From contig SCSM01000036.1 in NCBI GenBank assembly GCA_004322215.1, positions 41,840-105,839 of the forward strand: a DNA stretch of 64,000 nucleotides, written 5' to 3'. Positions 26,610 to 60,221 of the stretch are shown here, one piece after another (positions within the stretch are counted from its first letter, which is position 1; each line of letters begins with the position of its first letter). Source of the DNA: Bacteroidota bacterium (GTDB taxonomy: Bacteria; Bacteroidota; Ignavibacteria; Kapaibacteriales; UBA2268). The position numbers and the translations under genes are program-made. The notes under the pieces were generated by a model, which saw only the letters and a program-made list of their open reading frames with translations, was not told the DNA's origin and did not search any database.

Positions 26610-26815
26610 CAAAAGTTTTTTTTCACTTTATATTGCTTATTGGCAATTGAATTTCAAAATTGAAAATATTCATTCATAGATATGATTTTGATTAATTATA
26701 AATAAAATTGATTAAGCCAAATGTAAAATTTACCGATTAAAAGATATTATACGTTCTTATGTCTATATGTAAGGTTACAAAAAATTAGCTGTTTATTAAA
26801 TTTTTTTTATTTTGA

Positions 26816-26845
26816 CTGTAACATTTTGGGGTTTTATTTGTTATT
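26816..26845 (+). promoter_or_regulatory. Candidate autoregulatory ECF promoter TGTAAC-N16-TGTTAT
   Basis: ctgtaacatttt-N10-ttgttatt just before ATG 26857; same motif and spacing at 56991-57020. Confidence 0.6.
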
Positions 26846-26856
26846 GCATTAAGAAG

Positions 26857-27417
26857 ATGGACAAAGAACTGGAAAACCTTAGCGATGGAGAACTCTTCAA
26901 GCTGATGACTGCCGGCGAAGCAAGGTCTGTCAAGGCGTTTGAAGAGATATACACGAGGCATTCTCCCCGTGTGTATGCCTATTGCCGAAGGTATCTCGGC
27001 AACCGGGAGGAAGCCGAAGACGTATTCCAGGAGACCTTTATCCGTTTTTATAACAGCAGCCGTCAGCAGCGCGAGATGACGAATCTATCGGCTTACCTGC
27101 TGAAGATTGCAAGAAACCAGTGCTTGAATACGATTAGAGAGAATAAGCGAAATGCAAGATATGACGATGAGATTTATGTCAAGCATGAAGACAGGGATGA
27201 ACAGGACGAATTGTTGAATTTAGTCAAAATGGCAATTGAATTATTGCCTGACGAGTACAAGGAAATCTTTATTATGAGGGAATACAACGGGTTAAAATAT
27301 AACGATATAGCTGAAATAACAGGGATATCGATAAATACCGTTAAAATTAAAATTTTCAGGGCAAGGGAAAGAATCAGGCAAATCCTTCAGCCCTATTTAT
27401 CCGAAATGTCGAAATGA
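26857..27417 (+). CDS. ECF sigma-70 factor (copy 1)
   Basis: AFEEIY, EAEDVFQETF, YLLKIARN, LPDEYKEIFIMREYNGLKYNDIAE..GISINTVK...RAR; start placed at ATG 26857. Confidence 0.93.
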   Translation: MDKELENLSDGELFKLMTAGEARSVKAFEEIYTRHSPRVYAYCRRYLGNREEAEDVFQETFIRFYNSSRQQREMTNLSAYLLKIARNQCLNTIRENKRNARYDDEIYVKHEDRDEQDELLNLVKMAIELLPDEYKEIFIMREYNGLKYNDIAEITGISINTVKIKIFRARERIRQILQPYLSEMSK

Positions 27418-27445
27418 ATATTAAGATTATATAAAAGATTAGACT

Positions 27446-28672
27446 ATGGAAGAGACAATTGGAAATACACCATCGGAAATGCTGAACCTGCTCGTTGACG
27501 GAGAGCTGGAAACCAGCCAGGAAGTGTCATTGTATGCATCGCTGACCGAAAGCGATGAATTGCGTAATGAGATGAGGGAAATTCTCGCTATAAGAGAATC
27601 AATCAGGAAGGATACAGAAGCGTTCACTCCTCCGCGCAATGCGAGGAAATCTGTTCTTGCGGCTGTGGGACTTGCTCCCGGAGGTGTCATCAATGCACCG
27701 ATAACCCAGGTTGCGGTTCAAACCGGTTTCTGGGGCGGATTCTGGGGAAAGATAATGATGCCTGTGGCTTCTGCAGTGGTTGCAACCATCATCACTTCGC
27801 TGATGTTTATGAATTTTTACAAAACCGGTAACAATATGACTTCTACGCGAAGTTCTTTGAAGAACATACCGGTTGTTACATCGACTGAAAATATTGCTAA
27901 CGGGGAACAAACTCAGAATCAGAAAAATAATGGTATTGCTTCTCCAATTAAAAAGAGCAGCCATATTTCGAGCGGGATAATGCCATCAATCGTTCCGGTA
28001 CCCGATGCAATAATTGTCGAAAATAAAGATGAAACAGCTTTAACAAATCAGATTCAGACAGCATCTCTGGGGACAGATTTATATAAGCCGGGTTTCCTGA
28101 AATATTCAAATTCCGGAAGTAATATCATACCGGTTATTTCCATGTCTCCGAAACAATTTGAATCATTAAGCCGGGAGAAATTGTCGAATCTCGGAATAAC
28201 CCTCGTATTGCGTGGTATTGCCTCCCGGTCATTTCCGACTGTTGAATTGCCGTCTCAAGCTAATCCTTTATTACGCAATGTTGGACTGGGCGGCTACGTC
28301 AAACTGGTTGACGGATTGGATGTCGGTTTGGAAATAGGCCAGGAAAATTACGGGCTTATATATTATAATAAGGAAGACGGGGATTATGATAATAAAAATC
28401 CGATTCTTTTATGGGCAGGAATTGGTGTAAAAGGGAAATATAACGAGCATGTTGATTTTCTCGCAGGTGCAAAACCGTTTTTACAGGTTTTTATCGGAGG
28501 CACAAAAATCGGTCCTACGGGCAAAATCATCGGTGGATTGGAATATAGCTGGGACAGCGGACTCGGTTTCATTTTAGGTGTGGAAGGTAGTTCACTGTTC
28601 TATAACCAGGAGCAAAAATGGTATTCGACGGAAAAACTCGGATTTACTTACGGAATGCTGTATAGTTTTTAA
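27446..28672 (+). CDS. Putative dual-membrane-spanning anti-sigma factor (anti-sigma domain, TM helix, linker, OM beta-barrel)
   Basis: N-terminal LNLLVDGELE (zf-HC2-like without Cys); TM IMMPVASAVVATIITSLMF; S/T/N/P-rich linker; amphipathic strands ending KLGFTYGMLYSF. Confidence 0.72.
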   Translation: MEETIGNTPSEMLNLLVDGELETSQEVSLYASLTESDELRNEMREILAIRESIRKDTEAFTPPRNARKSVLAAVGLAPGGVINAPITQVAVQTGFWGGFWGKIMMPVASAVVATIITSLMFMNFYKTGNNMTSTRSSLKNIPVVTSTENIANGEQTQNQKNNGIASPIKKSSHISSGIMPSIVPVPDAIIVENKDETALTNQIQTASLGTDLYKPGFLKYSNSGSNIIPVISMSPKQFESLSREKLSNLGITLVLRGIASRSFPTVELPSQANPLLRNVGLGGYVKLVDGLDVGLEIGQENYGLIYYNKEDGDYDNKNPILLWAGIGVKGKYNEHVDFLAGAKPFLQVFIGGTKIGPTGKIIGGLEYSWDSGLGFILGVEGSSLFYNQEQKWYSTEKLGFTYGMLYSF

Positions 28673-28681
28673 TTTTGCAGA

Positions 28682-29260
28682 ATGAAAAAATTATTTAATT
28701 TATATTTTATTATTCCCGGATTGGTATTGTTTGTGTTTACATCCTGCCAATCTCCATCGGATATTGACAGTCCGACAAAAAAGATTCCGGTTACTAACAG
28801 GATTGTTCCGAATCTGACTGATATTATTTTAGAAGAAAACGGGGAGCAAAGAAATTTTACTGTTGGTTTGACTTCCTGCTCGATAGATAGTTCAGGCACT
28901 ATCCCTTATGTTTGGATGGAACTGGAATTTGTATCTGTAAACCCGTCTGATTATATGGATAAAGGGTTTTGCATCAATGGATTTTCAATTGTACTGGATT
29001 CGCTGCCGATTATTGCAATGCCCAATCGTGAACTCGGCTCCCCGGAACTGGGTTCATGGACATCTTTCATCATAAACAAATCGAACAATTCTAAAGATAC
29101 ATTACAATCAGGTATGGGTACAAATTTCACAAATGTTTCGTTCAGTTTCGACAAAGAAAGAAAAGAAATGTTTGCTTTCATTTACACGGATTTATATTTC
29201 GAAAACAATCAAAAACCGGACAGTACATTTTTCAGGACTACTCTTAAATACCAGTATTGA
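28682..29260 (+). CDS. Lipoprotein, hypothetical
   Basis: Lipobox FTSC; 9 nt after the anti-sigma stop. Confidence 0.75.
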   Translation: MKKLFNLYFIIPGLVLFVFTSCQSPSDIDSPTKKIPVTNRIVPNLTDIILEENGEQRNFTVGLTSCSIDSSGTIPYVWMELEFVSVNPSDYMDKGFCINGFSIVLDSLPIIAMPNRELGSPELGSWTSFIINKSNNSKDTLQSGMGTNFTNVSFSFDKERKEMFAFIYTDLYFENNQKPDSTFFRTTLKYQY

Positions 29261-29287
29261 AGTCGTCAGACGTCAAACTATTGGCTA

Positions 29288-29695
29288 TCATCTTAATACA
29301 ACAAAAGATTTTGAATATGTATATTGATTGTTCTGTGCTACGATAAAATATACTCCATTGCTATTTTGTACCCAATTTTCACCTTTATCTGTTGACCGGA
29401 ATATACCTTCAATATCAGTACTTGCAAAAATATAATTTTCATTTATTGCTAATGAGCCAATAGCAGTGTCAGGAATCGGAATGGTCGTTAAACCTTTATT
29501 TTTTGGAATCCAATTATTTCCATTACCAGTAGTCATATATACACCACCATCAATTCCTGTGTATATATTATTGCCATCTTTTAAAAAGCAAGAAATCTCG
29601 CCACTCAAAAGCCCATTATTACATGGTTCCCATTGTGCAATTACCTGAATTGAAAACATGAGAATTGTCAGCAAGTAAAAAGCAAGCTTTTTCAT
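29288..29695 (-). pseudogene. Internally deleted BNR-repeat/T9SS cargo gene (still in frame)
   Basis: Signal peptide and two BNR-like repeats (TTGNGNNW, STDKGENW) join directly to the last ~23 aa of a CTD (NGVYFIV...KSFVVLR); the PNP half of the CTD is missing. Confidence 0.6.
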
Positions 29696-29788
29696 AATAG
29701 AATCCATTATTTTGAGAAATATATTCTAAATAAAATTATTTTCTATTCTCAAATCGCTGATGCGAAATTACTACATTTTGGCAATTCT

Positions 29789-29832
29789 TGAACCGAAGCG
29801 AAGCTGAGCTCAACGAAGTTAATTGCCCCTAC
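29789..29832. repeat. GTAG-type REP-like palindrome interrupted by a second palindrome
   Basis: Minus strand gtaggggcaatt[aacttcgttgagctcagcttcgcttcggtt]caagaattgcc (extends to ~29780). Confidence 0.4.
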
Positions 29833-29872
29833 AATCAAAAGCTAATACCGAAATGTCTATCTTACTTCTTTT

Positions 29873-29944
29873 TGTCATTCCGAACTTGATTCGGAATCCA
29901 TTGCCAATTAATGAAATGGATGCTGAACCAAGTTCAGCATGACA
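29873..29944. repeat. TGTC-tagged REP-like inverted doublet
   Basis: tgtcattccgaacttgattcggaatcc ... ggatgctgaaccaagttcagcatgaca; homologous element at 43217-43303. Confidence 0.8.
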
Positions 29945-30115
29945 ATTCATTCAAATAAAAAACAATCAACCAAAAAATTTTGCAGCATTAATATAGAGAC
30001 ACAAGAAACCTAAAAAAAGTTTCAGAAAAAATAACAAATTTTTACTGTAATAACACGACAAATCCCAAAATGTTTCAATGATATAAATTTTTGGGTTCAT
30101 TTTATTTTCAAGAAC

Positions 30116-30571
30116 TCAATTATATACATTTCCTTTTATGAGAAATTGAAACCTGTCCGAACCGTTTATTATTACATAATCAACGAATGTACCTACATTT
30201 ATTACATTTGTATTCCATTCGCAAATCAAGGGATTTTCCGTATTGTTCTGCTTTGGCGGTATGACAACAGGGTATCCCTTTTCCGGGTAAATTCTAAAAC
30301 CGAGATTGTTTTTGATTCTTAAACTGTAAATGATGACAGGGTAACCATTGGAATTGTTATTTAAAATAATTTTCTTATTTGGAACCCTGTGCCAGTGAAC
30401 ATCACCAAAATCAATTTCACTCTGCTCGAGAAATCCCAGTGAATCCTCCCTCGAAATTATCGGAAGTATGGTAATTTTTGAAGTATTATTTCCAACTTCA
30501 ACAATATCCTTGCATGATATGAATATTGCAAGTAGTAAAACAATAAATAATATTTTGTGTAAAGTTTTCAT
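30116..30571 (-). CDS. Lipoprotein with Ig-like (ASH-type) domain
   Basis: Lipobox FISC; EIDFGDV...I.L.N...P.VIPP; third gene of cassette 2. Confidence 0.72.
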   Translation of the reverse strand: MKTLHKILFIVLLLAIFISCKDIVEVGNNTSKITILPIISREDSLGFLEQSEIDFGDVHWHRVPNKKIILNNNSNGYPVIIYSLRIKNNLGFRIYPEKGYPVVIPPKQNNTENPLICEWNTNVINVGTFVDYVIINGSDRFQFLIKGNVYN

Positions 30572-30578
30572 TTTTTTT

Positions 30579-31733
30579 TCAGAATTTAATTAAAACACTG
30601 TAGTTAATTCCGATTTTTGAATTACCGAACCATTTATTAATATGATGGTACCTGAAATAGCTGTAATCCACTCCGAGTACAAATCCTATATCATTATAGG
30701 CAAGGTATTCTAATCCAATACCGGGTCTGAGGATTATTCCACCTTGATTAAAGCCGACATTCATTCCGAGAAAGGAGTTGAACGGACCGAAGCTATAAGG
30801 ATACCAGCGTGCATCGGCACTGAATGTGGTTAAATTTGATTGCTGATTGAATATGACGATTGAATCTTTCAATCCGTTCTCGGTATATTCGGTATAAAAT
30901 GTTTCCTGTCTCGCATCGGCACCGATTTTAAAATTATCCGATAAATCGAATAAAACCGAGATACAGAAATTGTTGAACGGCGATACCGAATGGAGCGGGA
31001 GTGTCTCTCTGAGTATATTCCATGAAGGGTTGTTACCGAAACCGATAGTAAATCCGATTGGGCCTTTATAATTAATAACTAATCGTCTGTCCGGGGGCGT
31101 AGTAGTCAAATTTGAAAAAGTAGAATTTAAATTTGATATATTATATCCCATTGAAGGAATGTCCGGTGACAGTGACAAGTTTTTATCTTCAGTTTGAGTT
31201 CCATTGTTGAAATCGGTAATTTCCCTATCATCAGAATTATTAAAATCCTTGTTAATATTTCTGTGATTCAAAAAATGCCGTTCCGAAGGTTTTTCCTTCG
31301 ATTCGACCACAGGTATTTGATTTACCGGATTTTTGGAAGCAGGGTAATTCGATTTTGAATGAATATCCAATGCATTGTCTTGATTCGGGTAAAAGAAAAT
31401 AAGCATAACTGCAAGTGTTAATATAACACCCATAACACCGGATAAAATATTACCCCATAAATTTGATTTTGAGAAAAGCGAATTTCGCGTCTGTGCAGCA
31501 GCGGTTACTCCTGGTGGCACCGAATATCCGAGTTTGGAGTATATGTTACTTACTACATAACTGGGTGGAGAGAAGGAATCAGCACATTTTTTTGCAGCAT
31601 AATCGAGCATCCAGTAGTTTTTGAATTCCACCATCCAATTACTGTCAGAGCCGATTTGAGTGAACATTTTCTGCATTTCATCATCGCTGATGGTTCTTTC
31701 GAAGTACTTAATAAAAATTTCATTCATATCCAT
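30579..31733 (-). CDS. Putative dual-membrane-spanning anti-sigma factor (paralog 2)
   Basis: N-terminal helical domain with FSPP; TM ILSGVMGVILTLAVMLIFFY; polar linker with IPVVES; barrel ending KIGINYSVLIKF; colinear with the 27446 protein. Confidence 0.7.
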   Translation of the reverse strand: MDMNEIFIKYFERTISDDEMQKMFTQIGSDSNWMVEFKNYWMLDYAAKKCADSFSPPSYVVSNIYSKLGYSVPPGVTAAAQTRNSLFSKSNLWGNILSGVMGVILTLAVMLIFFYPNQDNALDIHSKSNYPASKNPVNQIPVVESKEKPSERHFLNHRNINKDFNNSDDREITDFNNGTQTEDKNLSLSPDIPSMGYNISNLNSTFSNLTTTPPDRRLVINYKGPIGFTIGFGNNPSWNILRETLPLHSVSPFNNFCISVLFDLSDNFKIGADARQETFYTEYTENGLKDSIVIFNQQSNLTTFSADARWYPYSFGPFNSFLGMNVGFNQGGIILRPGIGLEYLAYNDIGFVLGVDYSYFRYHHINKWFGNSKIGINYSVLIKF

Positions 31734-31743
31734 AATACCTCCG

Positions 31744-32337
31744 TTAATATTTTATGTTTTCAACGTATTCTTTAAAATAATCCTTCAACATTCTGTAAGC
31801 CCTCGAATACCTCTGTCTTATGTTTTCTTCCGATTCGTCGGTTAATTCGGCAATTTCGGTATAAGACAAAAGATTAAATCTCCTCAGAATGAATGTATCA
31901 CGATAAATCTCGTCGATTTCAGTTAATCCGACTTTAAGAAGTGCAACCAATTCGGGTTCCTCGAATGTACGCGGGAAACTCAATGGTGTTGCGATTTTAT
32001 CGAGCTCGATGCCGTCTTTGTGAACAAAAATCCTTTCATCGTTGTTGTGCCTGGTTTTGTATGATTTAATCAGGTTATTTGCAATACCTATCAAGTATGG
32101 CTGAATACTCGCAATAGTTTGTCTTTTTTTAACAGCTTTATGGAAATGATACCATACTTCCTGGAATATGTCTTCTGCATCTCTTTGGTCGCGGATTTTA
32201 TACCTGCAAAATCCGATAAGTCTTTTGGAATGCCTTTGAAATATTTCATGAAACACGATATCGCTTGTTGGCTTTGGTTCGTTCAACAAAAGCAACAATT
32301 CCCAATCTTTATACTCGCTATAATCGTTCATATACAT
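31744..32337 (-). CDS. ECF sigma-70 factor (copy 2)
   Basis: DAEDIFQEVW, YLIGIANN, YRDTFILRRFNLLSYTEIAE...RYSRA. Confidence 0.88.
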   Translation of the reverse strand: MYMNDYSEYKDWELLLLLNEPKPTSDIVFHEIFQRHSKRLIGFCRYKIRDQRDAEDIFQEVWYHFHKAVKKRQTIASIQPYLIGIANNLIKSYKTRHNNDERIFVHKDGIELDKIATPLSFPRTFEEPELVALLKVGLTEIDEIYRDTFILRRFNLLSYTEIAELTDESEENIRQRYSRAYRMLKDYFKEYVENIKY

Positions 32338-32698: not shown

Positions 32699-35600
32699 TT
32701 ATAAATTCAAATCTACATACTTACTCAAAATCTGAATTAATTCATCCTCTGTGAATGGCTTCGAAAGATAATCATTGCAGCCGGAAGCGATGAATTCTTC
32801 CCTATCTCCTTTCATGGCGAATGCAGTTATTGCTATAATAGGGGTTCTCTTGTAACCTTCCAAATTTCTAATTTCTTTTGTTACATCTATTCCGTTCTTA
32901 CCGCTTCCGAGATTTATATCCATAAGAATAATTGAATAATTTTTTTCGTTTACTGACTTTATTGCTTCATCGCCATCATAAGCAAAATCAATTACTGCAT
33001 TATCATTCAATATGAATTTCAGATATTTTATCGAAATTTCGTCATTTTCAACATATAGAATCAGTGGCATCGAATTATTTTTTTCATCCTCTATTTCAAA
33101 ATTTGTAATATCTTTTTTGGAAATTATATTATCAAATTCAGTTTTTTCATTTACTTCATCGGGTAATTTAACAGTAAAGGTCGAACCCACACCCGGTTTG
33201 CTTTTTACTTCAATTGTGCCACCCAACATTTCTATATATTTTTTCGTGATGGTTAAACCGAGTCCTGTGCCTTCGAATCCCCGGTTCAATCCTTCGCTCA
33301 ATTGTTTAAATTCGTTGAAGATTGTATCATAATCTTTTTCATCAATACCAATACCGGTATCAATTACATCAATGACCGCGTAATCCCTGTTGTTTAATAT
33401 TTCCTTTCTGACCTTGATTGTAATGCAACCTTCAACTGTAAATTTGAATGCATTGTCTATGAGGTTATTTAAGATGTCAATAATGATTCTCTGGTCAGAA
33501 TGAATAAAGAGTTTACCGAATTCAGATTCCAATTTCAATTCTATATTTTTTAACTGTGTTTCGGAACTATATAATCCTATTGACTCATTCACAAGTTCAA
33601 TAAGGTCAATGATATCATATACCGGGTTCAAATCACCTGCTTCAATGCGGGACAGGTCCAAAATCGAATTTAAAGTTTGCATCAGACGTTTACTGCTTTT
33701 GAAAATGAAACCTGAAATTTCTTTTAGAATAACAATGTCATTTTCTTTTTGCAAAATTTGAGAAAATCCCATAATCCCGTTCATCGGGGTTCGGAGTTCG
33801 TGACTCATATTTGCAAGAAAGCTCGATTTTAGACGGTTCATTTCTTCAGCTTTTTCTTTTGCTTTTATTAATTCTATTTCTGCTTCTTTTTGAGTGGTTA
33901 TATCTAAAAGAACTCCGGTGAGTCCAATAATGTTGCTTTCAATTTTATTTACCCTGCTTGAAGTGTGTACCCATCTTATTTCAAGTGATTTTGTAAAAAT
34001 CCTGAAATCAGTTGAAATTTCTTCGCCCTCTAATACTCGATTAAAATCAGATAATACATAATTTAAATCATCAAGATAGATAAATTCCTTAAGACTTCTT
34101 CCAGTTACTTCTTCTTGAGTATAACCAAAAACCTGATAAACTACGGGACTGATATAATCAATCACCCCTTCGCTTGTTAAAGAAAAAATTACGTCATTTA
34201 TATTCTCGACTAAACTGCTATATTTATGTTCAGATGCTATCAAAGCTTTTTCTGCCTTTTTCCTTTTTGTTATATCAAGCATCATTCCCGACATTATATC
34301 CCCTGCGAGAGTTTCGCTTATAAGTACATGTTTTGTATTACCTTTTTTAGTAATCATTGTTAATTCTAAGTTTTCAATTTTGTTTTCCGTTTTTATTCTC
34401 TCAATTATTGTGCTTCTTGAATCAACATCCTTATAAAGAGTTTTTACATTTATTTTGAGCATTTCTTCACATGAGTCAAATTCAAAAATTTTGGAGATAT
34501 AATCATTCACATACAATATGTCCCCGTTAAGATTTGTTTTATAAACACCGACAATTGCATTATCAACAAGGTTGCGATACTTTTCTTCGCTCCACTTTAT
34601 TCTTACTTCGGACTGCATTCTATTAAATGCTATACCGATTGCAGAGGCAATCTCTTCATAAAATTTGATCATATCTAAGTTAAATCTGCCAGACTGTTTA
34701 TCATTTAATTGCAACAATCCAATTACTTCATCACCAGAGCGAATTGGAATTAATGCCACTGACATATAACCTGAATATATGCAATTGTTCCTGGGATTAG
34801 TTCTGGGGTCTTCATTGGGTAACAAATCCAATAAATAGGTAGATTGATTGGTCCAAAAGCTGCCACCCTCGGTAAAGCAGGGTTTGCTTGTATCTGTTTT
34901 GCCTGATAATACTACTCCGCAGGTACATTCGAGAACCGGTAAACCGAATTCATTCTTAACAACAGAATTATCTTTGCTTTTTGCACACAGAAAATTTTCT
35001 TCTTTTATAAAAATATCATTAAAACCATCTTGAACATAATAGGGATAGTCATTCCCCTCTCTAAGTCGTATTCCGACAGCATCAAAACCCGTATATGATT
35101 TTATTTCCTTCAAAATATCTTTGATTAAATTTTGCCATTCATTTTGCCTGTTTAAATGCTCAAGGATCAGGGCAAAAAGCTTCAATTGTTCCTCAGACCG
35201 CTTTCGCTCGGTGATATCTCTGAAAATACCTAAAAGATATTTGTTCCCTCCAAAATTTATTGGAGCTGAACTTATATCAGCAAAGAATATTGTCCCATCT
35301 TTTTTTTGAACGGGAATATCCGACGCAATTATTATTTCCTTCCGGAGTTGTTTTTCAAATTGTTCGAGTACATACGGGAGTGCTTCTTGTGGATGAATCA
35401 TATTAACATTTATATTATATAATTCTTCCTCAGTATAACCAAGCATCTCACAAATTCTATTATTAGCAAGAAAGAAGTTTCGACTTTCTTCCTGAGCAAT
35501 AAGAATTCCATCTGTTGCTGTATTGAAAATGGTTCTGAACTTTTGTTCTGCTTCCTGCAGTGCCACCTCCGCCTGCTTGCGCTCTGTTATGTCCTGAACC

Positions 35601-38600
35601 ATGGAAAGGACGCCGACGACCCTGCCATCTGCTTCTTTGAGTGGTGTGTTGGTCCAATCGCATATAATGGTGCGACCATCTTTGGTCAAATTCTCATTTA
35701 AACTATGCGCAGTAGTGTCACCTTCAAGAAGTCGTGACCATATTGCATCTACCTGTGGTTGTACATCAATAGGCACAATAAGGTCATACGGATGTTTATC
35801 CATAGATTCGAATGCAGTGAAGCCGAAAATCTTCTCAGCAGCCGGATTCCATGATAGGACTCTGAATTCAGGATTCCATATTATACAACCGATAGGCATC
35901 CGGTTAAATTGAAGCTTTAAACGAGCCTCGCCTTTTTGCAGAGCTTCTTCTGCCTGCTTGCGTTCGGCACGATTACGCAAAGCGACGACGCCAAACGCCA
36001 AATCATTTGATAGTTCTTCCATTAGACGAATTTCGTCTGGGGTGATTGCGTTAGGTTCAGAGGAATAAATCAAGAGAACGCCGAATACTTCCGAACTTTC
36101 GTTCTTAAGAGGTAAGGCGATACCAGAACGATATCCTCGCTGCAAGGCGCTTTCACGCCACGGAGCCATTTTTGGGTCAATTGTGAAATCCTGAACATAG
36201 ATTATTTCACCGCTTCGTATAGCTTTTCCTGCGGGACCTTGTCCTCTTTCTGTATCTTCTGCCCATGTAAGTTTGACGTTTTCTATATACCCGCTATCGA
36301 AACCTGCCCAAGCAATTGGACGCACAGTTTTGTAGTCATCATGCTCGACATATCCTACCCAAGCCAAACGGTAATCTGCGTCATCGCAAATGATACGGCA
36401 AATTTCGTTGAGTAAGGTCTGCTCGTCAACTACCCTCAGAAGAGTCTGGTTGCAGTTGCTGATTGCTCGCAGTTCGCGATTCAATTTGCGTAATGCCTCC
36501 TCGATTTTTTTAAGTTCCGTAATGTCATGAACAGTCCCTAAAGAACATACCGGGTTGCCATTTTTATCATAAACAGTTTTGCATTTTTCATTTACATGTT
36601 TCAATTCACCGTTTTTCAGAAGTACCCTGTGGGTAATATCATATTTGGTTTTATTCTTGACCGATGAAGTATAAGCATCATTAACGAAATCCCTGTCATC
36701 AGGATGAACATAATTGAGAAATGCATCATAAGAAGCTCCGAACTCCTGCGGTTCGACTCCGAAAATCCGGTATATTTCATCGGACCAGGTGAGTCTGTTA
36801 TTTATTAAATCCAATTCCCAGTGGCCAAGATGTGCTATTGCCTGAGCTTCTCTGAGATTGGCTTCGCTTTCCCTTAATGCAAATTCCGAAAGTTTTCTTT
36901 TTGTTATATCTATTCCCATTTCCAGTATGAGCTTAGAACCATCAATATCCACAAAAGGAAAATCATAAACCTCGTAATTTTTTCCGTCAGGTCCTGTCCA
37001 TTCCCATTCTACCGGCTTCATTTTTTCGAGTGCCTTGAATGTTTGGCAATTTTCACATGGTTCTTTTCTGTTAAAGAGATACTCATAGCAGCATCGCCCG
37101 GGGAATTCGCCGAAGCGCTCTCTGAAAACCCGGTTTGCAAAGGTCATTTGATAATCCGGTGTAAGCAGGATTATATAGGTCGGTAATGTTTCAAGAACAT
37201 CGAAAAAACGCTTGCGTTCCGCTTTAAGAATTTCTTCGGCTTTTTTCTTTTCGGTAATATCACGGATATTGCATTGTATGACCCTGGTGTTATCAACCAT
37301 ATAAACATTGCTGACAAATTCGACATCAATTTGTTCATTGTTTTTAGTCATTAACTGCAAATCATCATTGTATGTATAATCTGAGTTCAGCTTTTCCAGG
37401 AAGAACTTTTCCGATGGAGCTATTTTAAAGAAATTGCCAATATCCCATAATTGTTTACCTAATAATTCAGCAACCGAATAACCTGCAATTTCGGTCATTG
37501 AAGGATTTAAGTCAACAATTCTTCCTGTTGAAGAATCGAGGATGATAATACCAACTTTGGCGGCTTCAAATAGACGGCGATAACGGGTTTCCGAATCATA
37601 CAGCTTTTTTTGAGCAATCCGTTCTTCGGTCTGGTCCCTGAAAATAAGTACAACACCGATAATCTTCTTATCCATGTCCCTGATTGGTGCACCACTGTCA
37701 GATATCGGAATTTCTCTTCCATCTCTTGAAATTAAAATAGTATGGTTTGCCAAACCTACAATTACTCCCTCATTCAGCACCCTTTGTACCGGATTTTCTA
37801 CAGTTTCTCTTGTATCTTCGCTAATAATATGAAATATTTTCTCTAAGCGTTGCCGTTTGGCATTTATTTCTTCCCAGCCGGTCAATTTTTCTGCGACAGG
37901 ATTCATTTGTTTTATATAACCGTTGATATCAGTAGTTATAACCGCATCGCCTATGCTGTATAAAGTAGTTTTGAACTCCTCATGTGATTCCCAGAGTTCT
38001 TTTTCTTTAAAAAACAAATGCTTATAAATATTTTTCTGTCGTGAGTTATATATATATGAAAAGCCGGCACCTGTGAATAATATTAATAACAGAACAAAAC
38101 CGATTGTTTTTCCACCTTCTATTAATAAGTCGGAATAAATTTCTTTTTTGTCAACTTTAGAAACCATAAACCAGCTTGTACCATTTATTGCGTGAATATG
38201 CGATAGAACATCCATGCCACGGTAATCCTTACCTTCAAAATTTCCTTTATTACCTGAGACAGCATAGGTCATAACACATTTATTATTAATCGGTAATTGT
38301 AAATTCAAAGCCGAATTCTTTTTGAGACGTAAATCATTTAATACTAAAATTCTGTTACCATCTTTGCGTAATAGCATAGTTTCAGCTGTCTTGCTGGGTG
38401 TGGGCCATGATTTTAAAAGAGGAAATAAATATGCTGCCGGTTCTATATGAAATACAATAGCAGCAATCGGATTTTTATCGCTGTTTATTATAGGTGAAAT
38501 TATTTCATAATGGATTTTCTTATGAACAGGACAGTAATAAATATCACTTAAAATTATATTTTTTTTTGAAATTGCCTCTTGCACCTTTAGTTTTACTGGT

Positions 38601-39025
38601 ATATCCATTAAAGAAGTATTTCTTCCCTGGTGAATCAGTAGTCCGCCTTTGCAATCAGTCAAATAAATATCATCAAAATCCATTGCTGTAATAAACAGGT
38701 TCAACCTGTCTTTCATATCTTTGATTAAACTGCTGTCATCTGAATTCCAAATAAATTGCTGAATCCTTTTTATCATTAACGATGACCTTGTAATGACTTC
38801 AGCATCTTTGATTTTACTTTTATTCCAATCAATAATTTGATTTACCTTCAGGTCGGCAACTGCTATTAATTCATTAGTCTGGTGTTTTATTAATTTACTT
38901 TTTTCATTGATATAATAGAGATAACCGCCGAAACAAAAGAATATACTGATAATAACTATTAGAAAAAAAACGTGCTTTTTATTATCAAGGTCAATTTTAA
39001 GAAGAGCATTCATAATAAACCTCAA
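32699..39025 (-). CDS. Hybrid sensor histidine kinase (Cache, multiple PAS/PAC, two GAF, HisKA, HATPase, REC)
   Basis: Two TM helices around a Cache-like domain; many DITxRK PAC ends; H-box FLANMSHELRTPMN; NLIDNAFKFT, DTGIGI, GTGLGL; receiver ILMDINL...SKPF. Confidence 0.95.
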   Translation of the reverse strand: MRFIMNALLKIDLDNKKHVFFLIVIISIFFCFGGYLYYINEKSKLIKHQTNELIAVADLKVNQIIDWNKSKIKDAEVITRSSLMIKRIQQFIWNSDDSSLIKDMKDRLNLFITAMDFDDIYLTDCKGGLLIHQGRNTSLMDIPVKLKVQEAISKKNIILSDIYYCPVHKKIHYEIISPIINSDKNPIAAIVFHIEPAAYLFPLLKSWPTPSKTAETMLLRKDGNRILVLNDLRLKKNSALNLQLPINNKCVMTYAVSGNKGNFEGKDYRGMDVLSHIHAINGTSWFMVSKVDKKEIYSDLLIEGGKTIGFVLLLILFTGAGFSYIYNSRQKNIYKHLFFKEKELWESHEEFKTTLYSIGDAVITTDINGYIKQMNPVAEKLTGWEEINAKRQRLEKIFHIISEDTRETVENPVQRVLNEGVIVGLANHTILISRDGREIPISDSGAPIRDMDKKIIGVVLIFRDQTEERIAQKKLYDSETRYRRLFEAAKVGIIILDSSTGRIVDLNPSMTEIAGYSVAELLGKQLWDIGNFFKIAPSEKFFLEKLNSDYTYNDDLQLMTKNNEQIDVEFVSNVYMVDNTRVIQCNIRDITEKKKAEEILKAERKRFFDVLETLPTYIILLTPDYQMTFANRVFRERFGEFPGRCCYEYLFNRKEPCENCQTFKALEKMKPVEWEWTGPDGKNYEVYDFPFVDIDGSKLILEMGIDITKRKLSEFALRESEANLREAQAIAHLGHWELDLINNRLTWSDEIYRIFGVEPQEFGASYDAFLNYVHPDDRDFVNDAYTSSVKNKTKYDITHRVLLKNGELKHVNEKCKTVYDKNGNPVCSLGTVHDITELKKIEEALRKLNRELRAISNCNQTLLRVVDEQTLLNEICRIICDDADYRLAWVGYVEHDDYKTVRPIAWAGFDSGYIENVKLTWAEDTERGQGPAGKAIRSGEIIYVQDFTIDPKMAPWRESALQRGYRSGIALPLKNESSEVFGVLLIYSSEPNAITPDEIRLMEELSNDLAFGVVALRNRAERKQAEEALQKGEARLKLQFNRMPIGCIIWNPEFRVLSWNPAAEKIFGFTAFESMDKHPYDLIVPIDVQPQVDAIWSRLLEGDTTAHSLNENLTKDGRTIICDWTNTPLKEADGRVVGVLSMVQDITERKQAEVALQEAEQKFRTIFNTATDGILIAQEESRNFFLANNRICEMLGYTEEELYNINVNMIHPQEALPYVLEQFEKQLRKEIIIASDIPVQKKDGTIFFADISSAPINFGGNKYLLGIFRDITERKRSEEQLKLFALILEHLNRQNEWQNLIKDILKEIKSYTGFDAVGIRLREGNDYPYYVQDGFNDIFIKEENFLCAKSKDNSVVKNEFGLPVLECTCGVVLSGKTDTSKPCFTEGGSFWTNQSTYLLDLLPNEDPRTNPRNNCIYSGYMSVALIPIRSGDEVIGLLQLNDKQSGRFNLDMIKFYEEIASAIGIAFNRMQSEVRIKWSEEKYRNLVDNAIVGVYKTNLNGDILYVNDYISKIFEFDSCEEMLKINVKTLYKDVDSRSTIIERIKTENKIENLELTMITKKGNTKHVLISETLAGDIMSGMMLDITKRKKAEKALIASEHKYSSLVENINDVIFSLTSEGVIDYISPVVYQVFGYTQEEVTGRSLKEFIYLDDLNYVLSDFNRVLEGEEISTDFRIFTKSLEIRWVHTSSRVNKIESNIIGLTGVLLDITTQKEAEIELIKAKEKAEEMNRLKSSFLANMSHELRTPMNGIMGFSQILQKENDIVILKEISGFIFKSSKRLMQTLNSILDLSRIEAGDLNPVYDIIDLIELVNESIGLYSSETQLKNIELKLESEFGKLFIHSDQRIIIDILNNLIDNAFKFTVEGCITIKVRKEILNNRDYAVIDVIDTGIGIDEKDYDTIFNEFKQLSEGLNRGFEGTGLGLTITKKYIEMLGGTIEVKSKPGVGSTFTVKLPDEVNEKTEFDNIISKKDITNFEIEDEKNNSMPLILYVENDEISIKYLKFILNDNAVIDFAYDGDEAIKSVNEKNYSIILMDINLGSGKNGIDVTKEIRNLEGYKRTPIIAITAFAMKGDREEFIASGCNDYLSKPFTEDELIQILSKYVDLNL

Positions 39026-52337: not shown

Positions 52338-53504
52338 CTATCTTAACAAAACAAATTTCTTAATCAAAAAGTAATTTCCGGTTAGAAGCTTACAAAAATA
52401 TATTCCGGGTGAAAGTTCACTCGCATCAATACTCTCTTTGTATTCGGTTTCCATCACTTTTTCTCCCATTGAAGAATATATTCCAATTAAAGTTGGATAT
52501 AATTCATTAGCTTTATATTTTATTTGAATAAAATCGTTTACGGGGTTGGGAGAGATTGATAATTCATTTTCATCTGAATTATCTGCTACACTTGTATATA
52601 TATCCCGATAATATATGTTGCCATCATCGGCACGAGTAAAGATTTTGCTGTCAGAAAAACGAAGTTCCTGATATTTGCATGTCGTAAGAGCAAGGTTTTC
52701 AGTTATATCAGTCCAACTCAAAGCATCATCATAAGAGCAAAATATTTTGGCGGGAGTTCGAAGATAAATGTTATCCTGATTATCAATATTAAGATATAAT
52801 AAGCCGTTAAGATTCAGATTCATTCTTTGCCAGGTCCAGCCGGAATCAATTGAAGTAAAAAGTGTATCTTTGACAAGCATGTAAAGTTTCCCTTTGCTGT
52901 TTTCTTCGCAGAGACCAAGTTCGGAGATGCCGGGATTTTCGAGTAATGAATATGTCTTGTTTGTATCATTAGTTATGAAAAGTGAATCACGTCTTGAGTA
53001 AATAAAGTTATAATTATGAAAGACAATATAGTAACCCATATAATATGGTATTGAAAGAAAATTTAATCCATCTTTTGAATTGAAAGAAACATGTGCCCAA
53101 TCAAATGTTGCTGATATACCCATATATCTTGAATTTATTTTTGTAAGCTTATTAGAATTATAAGAATCTTCAGTCCAAACATAATTATCAGTAAAAGTTT
53201 CACCGCAATCGGTAGAGGTTTCAATTATTATTGCCATTGGACTTATACTTAAAGATATATTTCCCTCACGAGTAATCACTATACCCTCAACATTAGTAAT
53301 ATCGGTGTGTTTTATATTACTCCAACTTGTACCAAGACTGATTGATATAAATAAAGAACGGTCTTTTTGAAAAGTAAACAAAGTATCTCCCCGGTTTCCG
53401 ATTACTACTATATTAGCAGTATCAGGATGATTTACATTGAACCATTCGGCATAAGCAGCGAAGCTAATAGACAAGAACAACAAAAGAGTTAAAAGCATTT
53501 TCAT
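52338..53504 (-). CDS. BNR/Asp-box repeat protein with T9SS sorting domain
   Basis: Signal peptide; STDCGETF, SIDSGWTW, SYDDALSW; ISPNPV...PGIYFC...KKFVLLR. Confidence 0.82.
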   Translation of the reverse strand: MKMLLTLLLFLSISFAAYAEWFNVNHPDTANIVVIGNRGDTLFTFQKDRSLFISISLGTSWSNIKHTDITNVEGIVITREGNISLSISPMAIIIETSTDCGETFTDNYVWTEDSYNSNKLTKINSRYMGISATFDWAHVSFNSKDGLNFLSIPYYMGYYIVFHNYNFIYSRRDSLFITNDTNKTYSLLENPGISELGLCEENSKGKLYMLVKDTLFTSIDSGWTWQRMNLNLNGLLYLNIDNQDNIYLRTPAKIFCSYDDALSWTDITENLALTTCKYQELRFSDSKIFTRADDGNIYYRDIYTSVADNSDENELSISPNPVNDFIQIKYKANELYPTLIGIYSSMGEKVMETEYKESIDASELSPGIYFCKLLTGNYFLIKKFVLLR

Positions 53505-56990: not shown

Positions 56991-57020
56991 CTGTAACATT
57001 TTACCATTTTTTTTGTTATT
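56991..57020 (+). promoter_or_regulatory. Candidate ECF promoter TGTAAC-N16-TGTTAT upstream of the T9SS cargo array
   Basis: ctgtaacatttt-N10-ttgttatt, same flanks and spacing as 26816-26845. Confidence 0.6.
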
Positions 57021-57093: not shown

Positions 57094-58866
57094 ATGAGAA
57101 CTAATATGTTTGGAACAACCTTATTGGTTGTGGTACTTATTTTGTCATTTCTTATATCAGCCGAAGGGAAAAATTTCAATCTTAAGGATTTTAATGAAAA
57201 AGCACCCGAATTGCTTGGCTCAAATAATGCCGGAACGGAATTCTGGCTGACTTTCAATCCGGCACCTGAAACACCGGGTGGGAAAAATGAATTGAAGCTT
57301 TACGTTGTTTCAGAATTTACTACCACTGTTACTGCTCTTAATTTTTCAAGATATTTTTTAGAACAAAAACAAATAAAGCCGTATGAAATAACCGAATTTA
57401 CACTAACTCCTTATCAAGGTCAGTGCTACAGTAAATCAGATTCAGAGCCACCGCAATCGGATGCAGTCTTTGGCGGTTGTGGAGAAGAATACGGAATTCA
57501 CGTATATGCCGACATGCCATTTATTTGTTATGCAGTAACTCAATATCAAAATTCAGGAGAGGGTTATCTTGCAATTCCTGTTTCCTCGCTTGGAAAAGAA
57601 TACATTGTTTCTTCATGGGCAGATGGTTCCGATAATATTACTTCTTATCACCCAAGCTATATTTCTATTGTTTCACCGTATGATAACAACATGATAGATT
57701 TTACTTTGGGTGGGACGCCGGGAACTAAAACGAAAGGCGGATTAATAACGGGGAATTCATGCAAATTCAATTTGGGAAAAGGCAACATTCTTTTGTTAGC
57801 ATCTGGCGGACAGGGAGCTGATTTCTCAGGCAGTCGTATATTGTCATCTAAGCCGGTTGCCGTCATATCGGGTAATTATTGTGCTAATATTCCTGATGGA
57901 ATAGGCGGTTGTAGCTTCGTTACAGAAATGGAAAGACCGGCTGAAACATGGGGAAAAACATATATTTATACACCGATTATATTCAGGAAAAATAATTCCT
58001 TTGTTAAAATATTTTCAAAAGAAGCAGGTACAAATATATTCAGGGATAATGTTCAAATAGCTACACTTAAGACAGCAGGGGGTATCGCCGAAGAAGGATG
58101 GATTAAACTGAGGGCTGACGAAAGTTCACCGTTTACACATATTTTCTCAGCCGATAAACCGATTAATGTTGTCCAATTCAATTGCGGATATGATGATGAT
58201 AGCGTGGAAAGCAATCCGTTTATGATGGAGCTAACACCAATGGAAGAATTTCAAAATGAGATAATATTCAGTACACCGAATTTACCATACGAAGACAGAT
58301 ACAAGTTCAATTACATAAATGTATTGTACCAGTCGGAAAAAGGTGTTTTATTGCCCGACGATGTACAAATTGCAAGTTACGAGGACAGTACATTTATCTG
58401 GAAAAAAATTGGCAATCTTCCAAATACATTGTCTGTACAAACTGTTGGTTCAATAAATGATAAATTTTATTATTTCGCGACAATCAAGCTATTGAAAAAC
58501 GGAGTATATAAAATTAAAGCAGACAATCCGTTAACGGCTTATTCTTATGGTTTTTCGGATGTGGATGGCTATGGATTTCCAGCGAGTACTTCTTTCAGTA
58601 CACTATTAAATGTGAATGGTTCTGAAAATGAAGTTGATATTAATTTATATCCCAATCCCGCAGATGATTATTTATCATTCAATTTTAATATAGAAGCTCA
58701 AAAGCCGGATTTCATAAAGTTATTTGATTCGTTTGGGAATGTTGTGTATGAAAATGAAAATATAATAGAGAATAATATTAAAATAAATACATCTGAATTA
58801 GCGAGCGGGATGTATTTTTTGCGGGTTGGGAGTATGTTTATGAGGAAGGTTGTGGTTGTTCATTGA
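57094..58866 (+). CDS. IgGFc-binding-domain protein with T9SS sorting domain
   Basis: GTEFWLTF, GYLAIPVSSLGKEY, GSRILSSKPVAVISG..CA.IP, E..P..TWGKTY, ADKPINVVQF, YSYG....GYGFP; CTD YPNPA...SGMYFL. Confidence 0.85.
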   Translation: MRTNMFGTTLLVVVLILSFLISAEGKNFNLKDFNEKAPELLGSNNAGTEFWLTFNPAPETPGGKNELKLYVVSEFTTTVTALNFSRYFLEQKQIKPYEITEFTLTPYQGQCYSKSDSEPPQSDAVFGGCGEEYGIHVYADMPFICYAVTQYQNSGEGYLAIPVSSLGKEYIVSSWADGSDNITSYHPSYISIVSPYDNNMIDFTLGGTPGTKTKGGLITGNSCKFNLGKGNILLLASGGQGADFSGSRILSSKPVAVISGNYCANIPDGIGGCSFVTEMERPAETWGKTYIYTPIIFRKNNSFVKIFSKEAGTNIFRDNVQIATLKTAGGIAEEGWIKLRADESSPFTHIFSADKPINVVQFNCGYDDDSVESNPFMMELTPMEEFQNEIIFSTPNLPYEDRYKFNYINVLYQSEKGVLLPDDVQIASYEDSTFIWKKIGNLPNTLSVQTVGSINDKFYYFATIKLLKNGVYKIKADNPLTAYSYGFSDVDGYGFPASTSFSTLLNVNGSENEVDINLYPNPADDYLSFNFNIEAQKPDFIKLFDSFGNVVYENENIIENNIKINTSELASGMYFLRVGSMFMRKVVVVH

Positions 58867-59038: not shown

Positions 59039-60221
59039 TAATCCTATTTATGAATTTTGTCCATATTGTGGTGGAACCCACGACAATGCTTATGTTGAAG
59101 ATATGCCTCAGACTTATGAAAGGTCAAAACTTGACACCATCATCCTGCATAAGGAAAGTTTTAATTATGATTTTTCTTATAATGAGTTTAGACCCGGTAT
59201 AGATTACAGAACGAGATGGAATGCAAAGGTACGTGATATTAACAAAGACGCTTTTATTAAAATCACGTTCAAAGATTTTGAAGGAAATGATACGACCATT
59301 CAAAATAATTTTTATGCAACAAAATTATCAATAAGGCCTGACCTTAATTTTGGGTTACTTTCTATTGGAGAAACGAAGGAATTGGTTTGTTGGATAAAAT
59401 GTGAATCAACGGTTGATGATACGATTACGAATATAAAATTTAAAAATAATGACCGGGGTTTTGAGATAATATGTGATAATCTGCCTTTTATAATTAAATC
59501 AGGTGATTCGATTAAAATTAAAGTAAAGTTTAAGGCATATTTTGAGGGGGATTTCAGTGATAGTATTGGAATTGAAGCAAAAGGATTTGATGACTATTTA
59601 TCAAGTGTCAAAGCACAGGTTGGGGCACCAAGTATTGAAGTAACTAATTGTTGGTTTGGTGATAAATATCTTAATTCAGTTTCCAATTGTTCTATTTTGA
59701 TATGGAATCATGGTATTACCGATTTGATTGTTACAGGTTATATTGGACCAAGATACCCAAATATTTATATACCTTATTTTGATGATTTTAATGAGAATTC
59801 TCCATTGATAATTGAACCAAATGGAGTTTATTCATGCGAGATTATATTTAAACCTTATGAAGAAAAATTATATTCCGACAGTATTCTTTTTATTAGTAAT
59901 TCTATAAAAACAATTGATGCAGATAGTATTGCAGAATTATCAGGAAAAGGAGTAGCCGTCGAAGATGTTTTTAATAATAACATTGGAAACAATTTTAATA
60001 TTAATCCCAATCCTGCGGATGATTTTATTTCAGTTAATTTTATTGAAGAATTTATTAAATCCGATGTTATAAAACTTTTCGATTCGTTTGGGAATGTTGT
60101 TTATGAAAATGGAAATATAATAGAGAATAATTTTAAAATAAATACATCTGGGTTAGCGAGCGGGATGTATTTTTTGCGGGTTGGGAGTATGTTTATGAGG
60201 AAGGTTGTGGTTGTTCATTGA
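58950..60221 (+). CDS. ASH/choice-of-anchor-D Ig-repeat protein with T9SS sorting domain
   Basis: Signal peptide; LNFG/CWFG...I.N...DL....F.P...DS repeats; CTD; start placed at ATG 58950. Confidence 0.8.
   Translation: MKAYTSLLLVIIGCFIMVSKSYSAKDTLPPNPIYEFCPYCGGTHDNAYVEDMPQTYERSKLDTIILHKESFNYDFSYNEFRPGIDYRTRWNAKVRDINKDAFIKITFKDFEGNDTTIQNNFYATKLSIRPDLNFGLLSIGETKELVCWIKCESTVDDTITNIKFKNNDRGFEIICDNLPFIIKSGDSIKIKVKFKAYFEGDFSDSIGIEAKGFDDYLSSVKAQVGAPSIEVTNCWFGDKYLNSVSNCSILIWNHGITDLIVTGYIGPRYPNIYIPYFDDFNENSPLIIEPNGVYSCEIIFKPYEEKLYSDSILFISNSIKTIDADSIAELSGKGVAVEDVFNNNIGNNFNINPNPADDFISVNFIEEFIKSDVIKLFDSFGNVVYENGNIIENNFKINTSGLASGMYFLRVGSMFMRKVVVVH

Follow-up and report, generated by a model that had tools for sequence, protein, structure and literature searches.

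A family of anti-sigma factors with a predicted outer-membrane barrel, encoded in nine sigma/anti-sigma operons of a Kapaibacteriales bacterium

Within a 64,000-nucleotide stretch of contig SCSM01000036.1 (assembly GCA_004322215.1, positions 41,840 to 105,839 of the forward strand; hereafter the window) from an uncultured groundwater bacterium of the order Kapaibacteriales (Bacteroidota; Ignavibacteria), we find two convergent three-gene operons at 26857-32337, each encoding an extracytoplasmic function (ECF) sigma factor, a 384-408-residue anti-sigma factor and a lipoprotein. These are two of nine operons of this kind in the genome, and we propose, with a probability of about 0.6, that their anti-sigma factors would cross the entire envelope on a single chain from an RseA-like N-terminus to a beta-barrel in the outer membrane, and that the sigma factor of one of the two operons in the window, cassette A, would control a regulon of type IX secretion cargo.

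Open reading frame (ORF) calls recover both operons as the initial annotation had drawn them, with intergenic gaps of 7-28 nucleotides inside each (Table 1). The two sigma factors belong to the ECF group, as they consist of regions 2 and 4 only and exceed the curated Pfam and NCBIfam cut-offs; sigA scores 101.3 bits against TIGR02937 (cut-off 42.9) and 127 against TIGR02985 (cut-off 126.4), and its score against a PG0214-type sigma model, 122.5, is short of the cut-off of 130. We take the ATG at 26857 to be the true start of sigA because a longer ORF from a TTG at 26812 would overlap the cassette-A promoter, GTAAC-N17-GTTA at 26818-26843. Across the two operons the anti-sigma factors are 22% identical over nearly their full length (expectation value, E, 3e-11) and the sigma factors 29% identical (E 7e-25). 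The three motifs previously named as shared by antiA and antiB are all present in both proteins, as AFTPP and SFSPP, IPVVTS and IPVVES, and, for the one containing KW(Y/F), KWYSTEKLGFTYGMLYSF and KWFGNSKIGINYSVLIKF. The lipoproteins align at 26% identity and E 8e-4 only, in a gapped 164-column alignment that starts in their signal peptides, and are effectively unrelated to each other in sequence, as had been suggested.

Table 1. Coordinates of the two cassettes, of the predicted parts of their anti-sigma factors and of related sites in the window
Feature	Position	Strand	Basis or remark
sigA, ECF sigma factor, 186 residues	26857-27417	+	Sigma70_r2 1.1e-19, r4_2 3.1e-17; TIGR02937; TIGR02985
antiA, anti-sigma factor with C-terminal barrel-like domain, 408 residues	27446-28672	+	ORF and family alignment
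lipoA, lipoprotein, 192 residues, lipobox ...VFTSC, Cys22	28682-29260	+	no Pfam family
sigB, ECF sigma factor, 197 residues	31744-32337	-	Sigma70_r2 2.4e-11, r4_2 1.2e-8; TIGR02937 71.3 bits (cut-off 42.9)
antiB, paralogous anti-sigma factor, 384 residues	30579-31733	-	ORF and alignment to antiA
lipoB, lipoprotein, 151 residues, lipobox ...IFISC, Cys20	30116-30571	-	no Pfam family above cut-off
antiA residues 1-80, cytoplasmic anti-sigma-like domain, LVDGEL...E..LY..L...DELRNEM...AFTPP	27446-27685	+	sub-threshold RseA_N and NF052375 matches
antiB residues 1-75, N-terminal domain	31509-31733	-	alignment
antiA residues 103-125, predicted single transmembrane helix	27752-27820	+	best 19-residue hydropathy window 2.06, next elsewhere 1.42
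antiB residues 96-114, predicted transmembrane helix	31392-31448	-	hydropathy
antiA residues 140-148, juxtamembrane motif NIPVVTSTE	27863-27889	+	conservation in 165 relatives
antiB residues 139-147, motif QIPVVESKE	31293-31319	-	alignment
antiA residues 126-248, polar Asn/Ser-rich tether, about 123 residues	27821-28189	+	length and composition in relatives
antiA residues 249-408, predicted outer-membrane beta-barrel of about eight strands, ending YGMLYSF	28190-28669	+	hydropathy, Atlas neighbours, terminal Phe
antiB residues 226-384, barrel-like domain	30582-31058	-	hydropathy, Atlas neighbours
Cassette-A ECF-type promoter, GTAAC (-35), 17 nucleotides, GTTA (-10); extended form ACTGTAACATTTT...GTTATT	26818-26843	+	motif
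Variant cassette-A promoter GAAACATTTT-N12-GTTA, upstream of the BNR remnant	30051-30076	-	motif
Second exact copy of the cassette-A motif	56993-57018	+	motif
Secreted protein, 590 residues, predicted sigma-A target	57094-58866	+	IgGFc_binding 1.2e-47; Por_Secre_tail 4.9e-13 (type IX C-terminal sorting domain)
BNR/Sortilin-type type IX cargo gene remnant, 139 residues, between the cassettes	29288-29707	-	45% identity, E 1e-29
Terminator-like hairpin 3' of lipoB	29920-29940	-	weak: such sites are no commoner in the region than in shuffles

The middle gene of each operon has the layout first ascribed to it, with no signal peptide, an anti-sigma-like N-terminus, one transmembrane helix, a polar tether (about 123 residues in antiA and about 111 in antiB) and a barrel-like C-terminal domain ending in phenylalanine. 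Both N-termini are acidic and polar, and across 165 relatives they follow the pattern DGEL...E..LF..L..N.ELR.EF...AF.PP. This part of antiA is similar to the RseA-type anti-sigma domain, although by curated thresholds it is not a member of that family. It matches RseA_N at E 0.035 with 15.1 bits against a cut-off of 24, as do four of 16 members scanned (best E 0.0025), and it matches NF052375, 'anti-sigma factor', at E 2.8e-4 with 21 bits against a cut-off of 100, as do eight of 32 relatives (best 3.8e-9). Searched against the sequences of the PDB, the family profile returned the RseA chain 1or7_C at E 0.11 together with a chance match to a G-protein-coupled receptor. We infer from these similarities that the N-terminus would bind the sigma factor encoded upstream.

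Beyond the helix lies the tether, which in the 165 relatives is at least 97 residues long (median 132, maximum 206) and consists of 13.6% asparagine and 11.9% serine. Its sequence is variable except for a juxtamembrane motif, N-[IV]-P-[VI]-[VI]-x-S-x-E, situated about 15-25 residues past the helix; the residues corresponding to antiA Pro142, Ser146 and Glu148 are found in 150, 123 and 92 of the 165 relatives, respectively.

The C-terminal domain of about 160 residues is made up of eight segments in which hydrophobic and polar residues alternate (in antiA, residues 249-257, 276-287, 291-308, 313-332, 342-352, 357-367, 373-386 and 398-408), with glycines and charges conserved on the polar, presumably inward-facing side. 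When the hydropathy profile of each domain was itself shuffled, the observed alternation was reached by one of 1,000 shuffles for antiA and by none of 1,000 for antiB. The last residue is phenylalanine in 140 of 165 relatives; positions -3, -5, -7 and -9 are hydrophobic or aromatic, and this is the pattern of the signal recognised by the barrel assembly machinery. In the ESM Atlas, structural neighbours of the antiA and antiB models are outer-membrane barrels, namely PagL and TP_0126 (template-modelling (TM) score 0.66 as given in that row), and further neighbours are barrels of 206-241 residues (TM scores 0.55-0.59 as given in those rows) and OMP_b-brl or OMP_b-brl_2 proteins of 368-467 residues. 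Taken together, sequence patterns, weak profile matches and these neighbours point to a barrel at one end of the chain and a sigma interface at the other.

Conservation of this anti-sigma family is, as judged by sequence, far beyond chance. An exhaustive profile search of metagenomes returned 2,096 cluster representatives when the threshold was E<=1e-3, 1,198 of them also passing E<=1e-30, and among the 150 representatives listed, 148 gave a single full-length match and two matched in two stretches. We also considered a gene-fusion artefact and rejected it, as the frame is open and without stops in all matches. Relatives that carry names are 'hypothetical protein' entries from Ignavibacteria or Bacteroidota metagenome-assembled genomes, and the Atlas clusters are mostly from Candidatus Kapaibacteriota, in agreement with the initial placement of the system in a non-Bacteroides lineage. 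In a search of 301 genomes of the same GTDB phylum, the family profile had full-length matches in all 17 other genomes of the window's order (six of six in family f1, one of one in f2, nine of nine in f3 and one of one in f4) and, beyond the order, in a single other family of the class (G049), while the remainder of the class had N-terminal matches only, to proteins of about 160 residues. Gene order has been retained as well: an ECF sigma gene lies immediately upstream in 23 of 23 loci (nine in the window's own genome, 11 in other genomes of the order and three in G049), and the synteny envisaged at the outset, sigma to anti-sigma to lipoprotein, is kept in 11 of the 11 loci from other genomes of the order, the lipoprotein of L010 being ambiguous.

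The genome to which the window belongs (G000; 4.2 Mb, 47 contigs, 96.7% complete) encodes eight full-length anti-sigma paralogues and one more distant one. Because all nine follow directly upon an ECF sigma gene, nine of the 22 sigma-70-family matches in this genome belong to such cassettes. The original description of the operons as duplicated falls short of this number, and a simple twin duplication is rejected by the presence of nine cassettes.

A lipoprotein with a lipobox cysteine follows the anti-sigma gene in seven of the nine cassettes and in 10 of the 11 loci from other genomes (L010 again being the ambiguous case); the two cassettes without one are L102 (C29:91006-93075) and L008. 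The anti-sigma gene of L008 is followed by a gene for a 250-residue signal-peptide protein ending GFRLWL, and that of L009 by one for a 689-residue type IX cargo protein. In family f3 the cassette is single-copy, and its conserved lipoprotein is a weak homologue of lipoA (E 1e-4 to 1e-7); lipoA also shares with the lipoproteins of orthologous cassettes the start SC-x-SP-x-D-x-D-x-P-x-K, with a similar N-terminus visible by eye in G049. For this reason we regard cassette A as the conserved core copy, retained together with its lipoprotein across other families of the order. Cassette B is a paralogue that has diverged and has a different lipoprotein, lipoB, which shares 47% identity with the one encoded in the paralogous cassette L003. 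The lipoproteins of other cassettes are unrelated, with DUF4397 in L007 and a weak DUF3108-like match in L005.

The promoter of cassette A provides an indication of what its sigma factor controls. In the window, the cassette-A motif has three matches against 0.00 expected, and its extended form, G[AT]AACATTTT-N12-GTTA, occurs at 22 sites in the genome against none for the reversed pattern. Among the 22 sigma-70-family genes of the genome, sigA is the sole one with the motif upstream; it precedes none of the other eight cassette sigma genes, and the upstream regions of those eight cassettes hold no widely repeated motif in seven cases and, before the sigma gene of L009, a motif present in three copies. 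The core GTAAC/GTTA, with a spacer of 15-18 nucleotides, lies upstream of the orthologous sigma gene in seven of the 11 loci from other genomes, and such retention is as expected for an autoregulated ECF sigma factor. We conclude that sigma A most likely recognises GTAAC(ATTTT)-N17-GTTA.

With a slightly different pattern we found 20 sites, one of which is sigA's own; of the ORFs downstream of the other 19 we scanned 18, all but a 60-residue call at C37. The type IX sorting domain Por_Secre_tail (PF18962) is above cut-off in 11 of these 18; the other seven comprise three IgGFc_binding paralogues cut by contig ends, two CarboxypepD_reg lipoproteins and two outliers, a VWA-OmpA protein and a glycosyltransferase, whose sites lack the extended flanks. 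In the window, the variant promoter precedes a BNR remnant that matches the first third of a 405-residue paralogue carrying Por_Secre_tail and ends 28 nucleotides from the lipoA stop. In five genomes of family f3, the motif stands before the cassette sigma gene in four, and Por_Secre_tail was found in two of the five other downstream ORFs scanned. Location of the scanned GTAACATTTT-N12-GTTA sites mostly before type IX cargo genes suggests that these genes are what sigma A controls, and with moderate confidence we consider an autoregulated sigma-A regulon of secreted surface proteins probable.

Just past several of the sigma-A-type promoters there is a conserved leader of about 45 nucleotides (...TTAAATTTCCTGAGAC-T-run-GGTTT...), in which a hairpin followed by T residues is possible; copies are found at 29990-30050 (minus strand) in the window and at C2:27697, C2:23405, C5:231748, C6:1565 and C37:33125 in the genome, and the leader is perhaps an attenuator or a small RNA. 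Type IX sorting-domain matches also occur elsewhere inside the window, for example at 52350-52556, 60000-60191 and 61691-61897, and the secreted-protein repertoire of the genome is unusually large for 4.2 Mb.

By joining these elements we arrive at a working model. The RseA-like N-terminal domain would hold the ECF sigma factor at the inner membrane, where the single transmembrane helix would anchor the anti-sigma factor, while the polar tether of about 100-200 residues would span the periplasm and the C-terminal barrel of about eight strands would sit in the outer membrane. On the pattern of RseA and Dma1, the trigger might be a disturbance at the outer membrane or beyond it that lays the tether open to proteolysis, possibly at the juxtamembrane IPVVxS, after which an M50 site-2 protease (the genome has two M50 proteases) would cut within the membrane, and the freed sigma factor would transcribe its own operon and its regulon. 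For sigma A, this would comprise the cassette and about 20 large secreted-protein genes preceded by the motif. Because the motif precedes its own operon and mostly type IX cargo genes, cassette A would tie the production of surface proteins to the state of the envelope. In this scheme the lipoprotein could act as an output or a co-sensor, and the juxtamembrane motif as a cleavage or docking site.

Several observations weigh against this model, and they are best considered together with the alternatives that they favour. For the barrel, the Atlas models have low overall confidence (predicted local distance difference test, pLDDT, 0.57 and 0.59), query-side TM scores in the Atlas comparisons are all below 0.5, none of the 16 members scanned matches a barrel Pfam family, and a barrel-only profile searched against PDB sequences found TodX alone, at a non-significant E of 0.41; for the N-terminus, none of the RseA_N or NF052375 assignments reaches its curated threshold. 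These could be ordinary single-membrane anti-sigma factors in which the beta-rich C-terminal domain is a soluble periplasmic sensor and the terminal phenylalanine and strand pattern are incidental, as the lack of barrel family and PDB matches and the low-confidence models would allow. We nonetheless consider this improbable, given that the eight-segment alternation is stronger than in shuffles, that 140 of 165 relatives have a C-terminus resembling the barrel assembly signal, that every named structural neighbour is an outer-membrane barrel, and that a tether never shorter than 97 residues has no obvious use in a periplasmic sensor. The protein might instead be a precursor that is split after export, such that the barrel is released as an independent outer-membrane protein and nothing bridges the membranes. 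Constitutive processing could take place at the conserved IPVVxS, which lies just beyond the membrane, two loci (L033 and L034) have a sigma gene, a short anti-sigma gene and a separate signal-peptide PF13568 barrel gene, and the part of PMC10927553 consulted describes only C-terminal fragments of Dma1 in vesicles. Yet the fusion is kept across all 2,096 representatives, with 148 of the 150 listed giving single full-length matches, no barrel-only relative turned up in the window's genome, and in the analogous Bacteroides system the same part of PMC10927553 reports full-length Dma1 in membranes; a split precursor is, in our estimate, slightly less probable still than a periplasmic sensor.

As regards the regulon, the link from motif to sigma A is drawn from autoregulation. 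Many of the targets are paralogous (six IgGFc_binding and five to six BNR/Sortilin proteins), so their promoters are not independent and may have been inherited by duplication. Moreover, this genome abounds in type IX sorting-domain matches (150 of 357 candidates were scored, giving at least 150), the loose pattern is weakly enriched in family f3 (11 matches against six for the control), and no RNA sequencing run is listed among the runs containing the locus (three DNA runs are, two of which may have been sources of this assembly). The GTAACATTTT-N12-GTTA promoters might on these grounds be read by another sigma factor, for instance a dedicated type IX regulator, with cassette A a member of the regulon and not its master. 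We think this unlikely, if less so than either account of the C-terminal domain given above: it would leave unaccounted for why sigA alone among the sigma-70-family genes has the motif upstream, why the core stays upstream of the orthologous sigma gene in other families of the order, and why none of the other eight cassette sigma genes has it.

A 2,108-residue multi-domain sensor histidine kinase/response-regulator hybrid is encoded at 32699-39025 on the minus strand, shortly upstream of sigB and on the same strand. The G+C content is 0.39-0.46 across sigA and antiA (27000-28500), 0.32-0.38 in cassette B and 0.19-0.32 in the flanks. A generic scan of the region for sigma-70 promoters and terminators gave counts not above those in shuffles.

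Among characterized systems, the window family has in common with RseA and sigma-E of Escherichia coli the weak N-terminal similarity and a single-pass topology with the N-terminus inside, and an RseA-like response to the state of the outer membrane by two-step proteolysis is presumed by analogy. RseA has a soluble periplasmic domain, and unfolded outer-membrane proteins are sensed indirectly, through DegS and RseB. The anti-sigma factor of the window family appears by contrast to carry an outer-membrane barrel itself, and all its RseA-type matches are below family cut-offs. With FecA/FecR/FecI cell-surface signalling it would have in common an outer-membrane signal that crosses the periplasm to reach an ECF sigma factor. 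There the task is divided among three proteins (a TonB-dependent transducer, a FecR-type anti-sigma factor and a sigma factor), whereas here the outer-membrane part and the anti-sigma factor would be on a single chain; Pfam and NCBIfam scans of the cassette proteins found no FecR or TonB-dependent receptor domains.

A further comparison is with stand-alone anti-sigma factors of 155-157 residues from other families of the same class, whose N-terminus and transmembrane helix are homologous to those of the window family (profile E 1e-6 to 1e-12, positions 1-127). Two of the three loci analysed (L096 and L097) keep the sigma, anti-sigma, lipoprotein order, and the third (L098) has no called sigma ORF upstream. 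These proteins have neither tether nor barrel, and the window family looks like such an anti-sigma factor extended by both. An anti-sigma plus barrel layout may exist outside the Fibrobacteres-Chlorobi-Bacteroidetes (FCB) group as well, because one Atlas neighbour of the antiB model, aligned over residues 47-384, is a cluster of 467-residue 'anti-sigma factor family' proteins that is commonest in Acidobacteriota. Among the papers searched, none joined anti-sigma factors, Ignavibacteria, the outer membrane and ECF sigma factors, none of those listed used the phrase 'dual membrane-spanning', and the main text of the ECF re-classification paper PMC7826278, the part consulted, does not mention Ignavibacteria or Chlorobi.

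It is with the Dma/Reo anti-sigma factors of Bacteroides, to which the initial annotation had likened the cassettes, that the layout agrees most fully. In the parts of PMC10927553 on which we draw, Dma1 is encoded beside an ECF21 sigma factor that binds its first 40 residues, and its single transmembrane helix is accompanied by an extended disordered stretch and, at the C-terminus, a barrel of eight strands that is annotated OMP_b-brl_2. Dma1 was detected in both membranes. Its regulon consists mainly of NigD-type lipoproteins, and the gene of one, NigD2, lies beside das1-dma1; those same parts report Dma as confined to Bacteroidota, with no structurally similar protein found elsewhere. The window family has the same order of domains and shares with Dma an ECF sigma gene immediately upstream, a cytoplasmic N-terminus without a signal peptide, one transmembrane helix, a long polar tether, a barrel-like C-terminal domain of about 160 residues, several paralogues per genome and an adjoining lipoprotein gene, NigD2 in the one case and lipoA or lipoB in the other.

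Membership of the Dma/Reo family, in the sense of a divergent copy of that system, is not supported by the sequence comparisons. PF13568, the family of the Dma barrel, and PF13505 have no match at E<=1 in any of 16 members, and the PF13568 matches of the window's genome are other proteins, encoded elsewhere and with signal peptides. For comparison we assembled 23 Dma-type proteins, all from classes of the phylum other than that of the window, chosen by architecture (no signal peptide, one transmembrane helix, a C-terminal PF13568 barrel) and not by orthology to B. thetaiotaomicron Dma1; about 18 of the 23 have an ECF sigma gene upstream, where the fetched locus reached, and for one of them, relatives in Coprobacter and Tannerella carry the annotation outer-membrane beta-barrel or PorT-family protein. 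Aligned with hhalign to the 165-member family, this set gave probabilities of 8.5% (whole protein), 4.6% (barrels) and 0.6% (N-termini). Its profile matched in 22 of the 301 genomes and in none of the 17 of the window's order, and the window-family profile had full-length matches in none of the families holding Dma-type proteins. In a tree of 79 ECF sigma factors, from which we excluded five sigma-70-like matches longer than 600 nucleotides (two from G000, one from G027 and two from G039), the window-family sigma factors form one clade (19 of 20 rows, Shimodaira-Hasegawa-like approximate likelihood ratio test support 98) and the Dma-associated ones a second, set among further Bacteroidia ECF sigma factors (15 of 15, support 83); the two clades are not sisters, and both lie inside one weakly supported group.

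The N-terminal domain is also of the RseA/DGEL type and about 65 residues long in the window family, against about 40 in Dma, there are nine copies in this genome against three in B. thetaiotaomicron, the lipoproteins are not NigD-like, and the predicted output is type IX secretion cargo in place of NigD and vesiculation. By sequence, then, the window family is a separate family with the Dma layout: it would work like Dma but is not Dma. Two observations concern the Dma side of this comparison. In L033 (G027:C2) and L034 (G007:C2), both from Bacteroidia, an ECF sigma gene precedes an anti-sigma gene of 204-281 codons, after which comes the separate barrel gene mentioned above, of 339-345 codons, and this arrangement may be the split counterpart of the fused Dma layout. 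In Dma-type loci of f16 and relatives (L039, L045, L046, L048-L052, L055 and L057), a conserved lipoprotein of about 195 residues is encoded downstream (pairwise E to 1e-66); a Pfam scan of one member gave no match, and the protein bears no relation to the lipoproteins of the window family.

More tentatively, and with the odds somewhat against so full an account, we suggest that the one-chain trans-envelope anti-sigma factors of this family arose independently, possibly by convergence, and expanded in Ignavibacteria/Kapabacteria-type bacteria, where a tether and barrel were added to a short RseA-like anti-sigma factor and the core copy came to gate about 20 type IX cargo genes. If so, the cell would use one polypeptide to gauge outer-membrane state or secretion load and set its output of surface proteins accordingly, and the sigma-A motif offers a concrete predicted regulon for such a system, whose link to type IX cargo we did not find in the literature searched. 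Dual-membrane anti-sigma factors would then be a recurrent design and not a peculiarity of Bacteroides. A second family of the same layout but unrelated in sequence, with a classical anti-sigma domain, in a different class and in many paralogues, would make that design more general, and would supply natural variants of tether length, juxtamembrane motif and barrel to set beside those of Dma.

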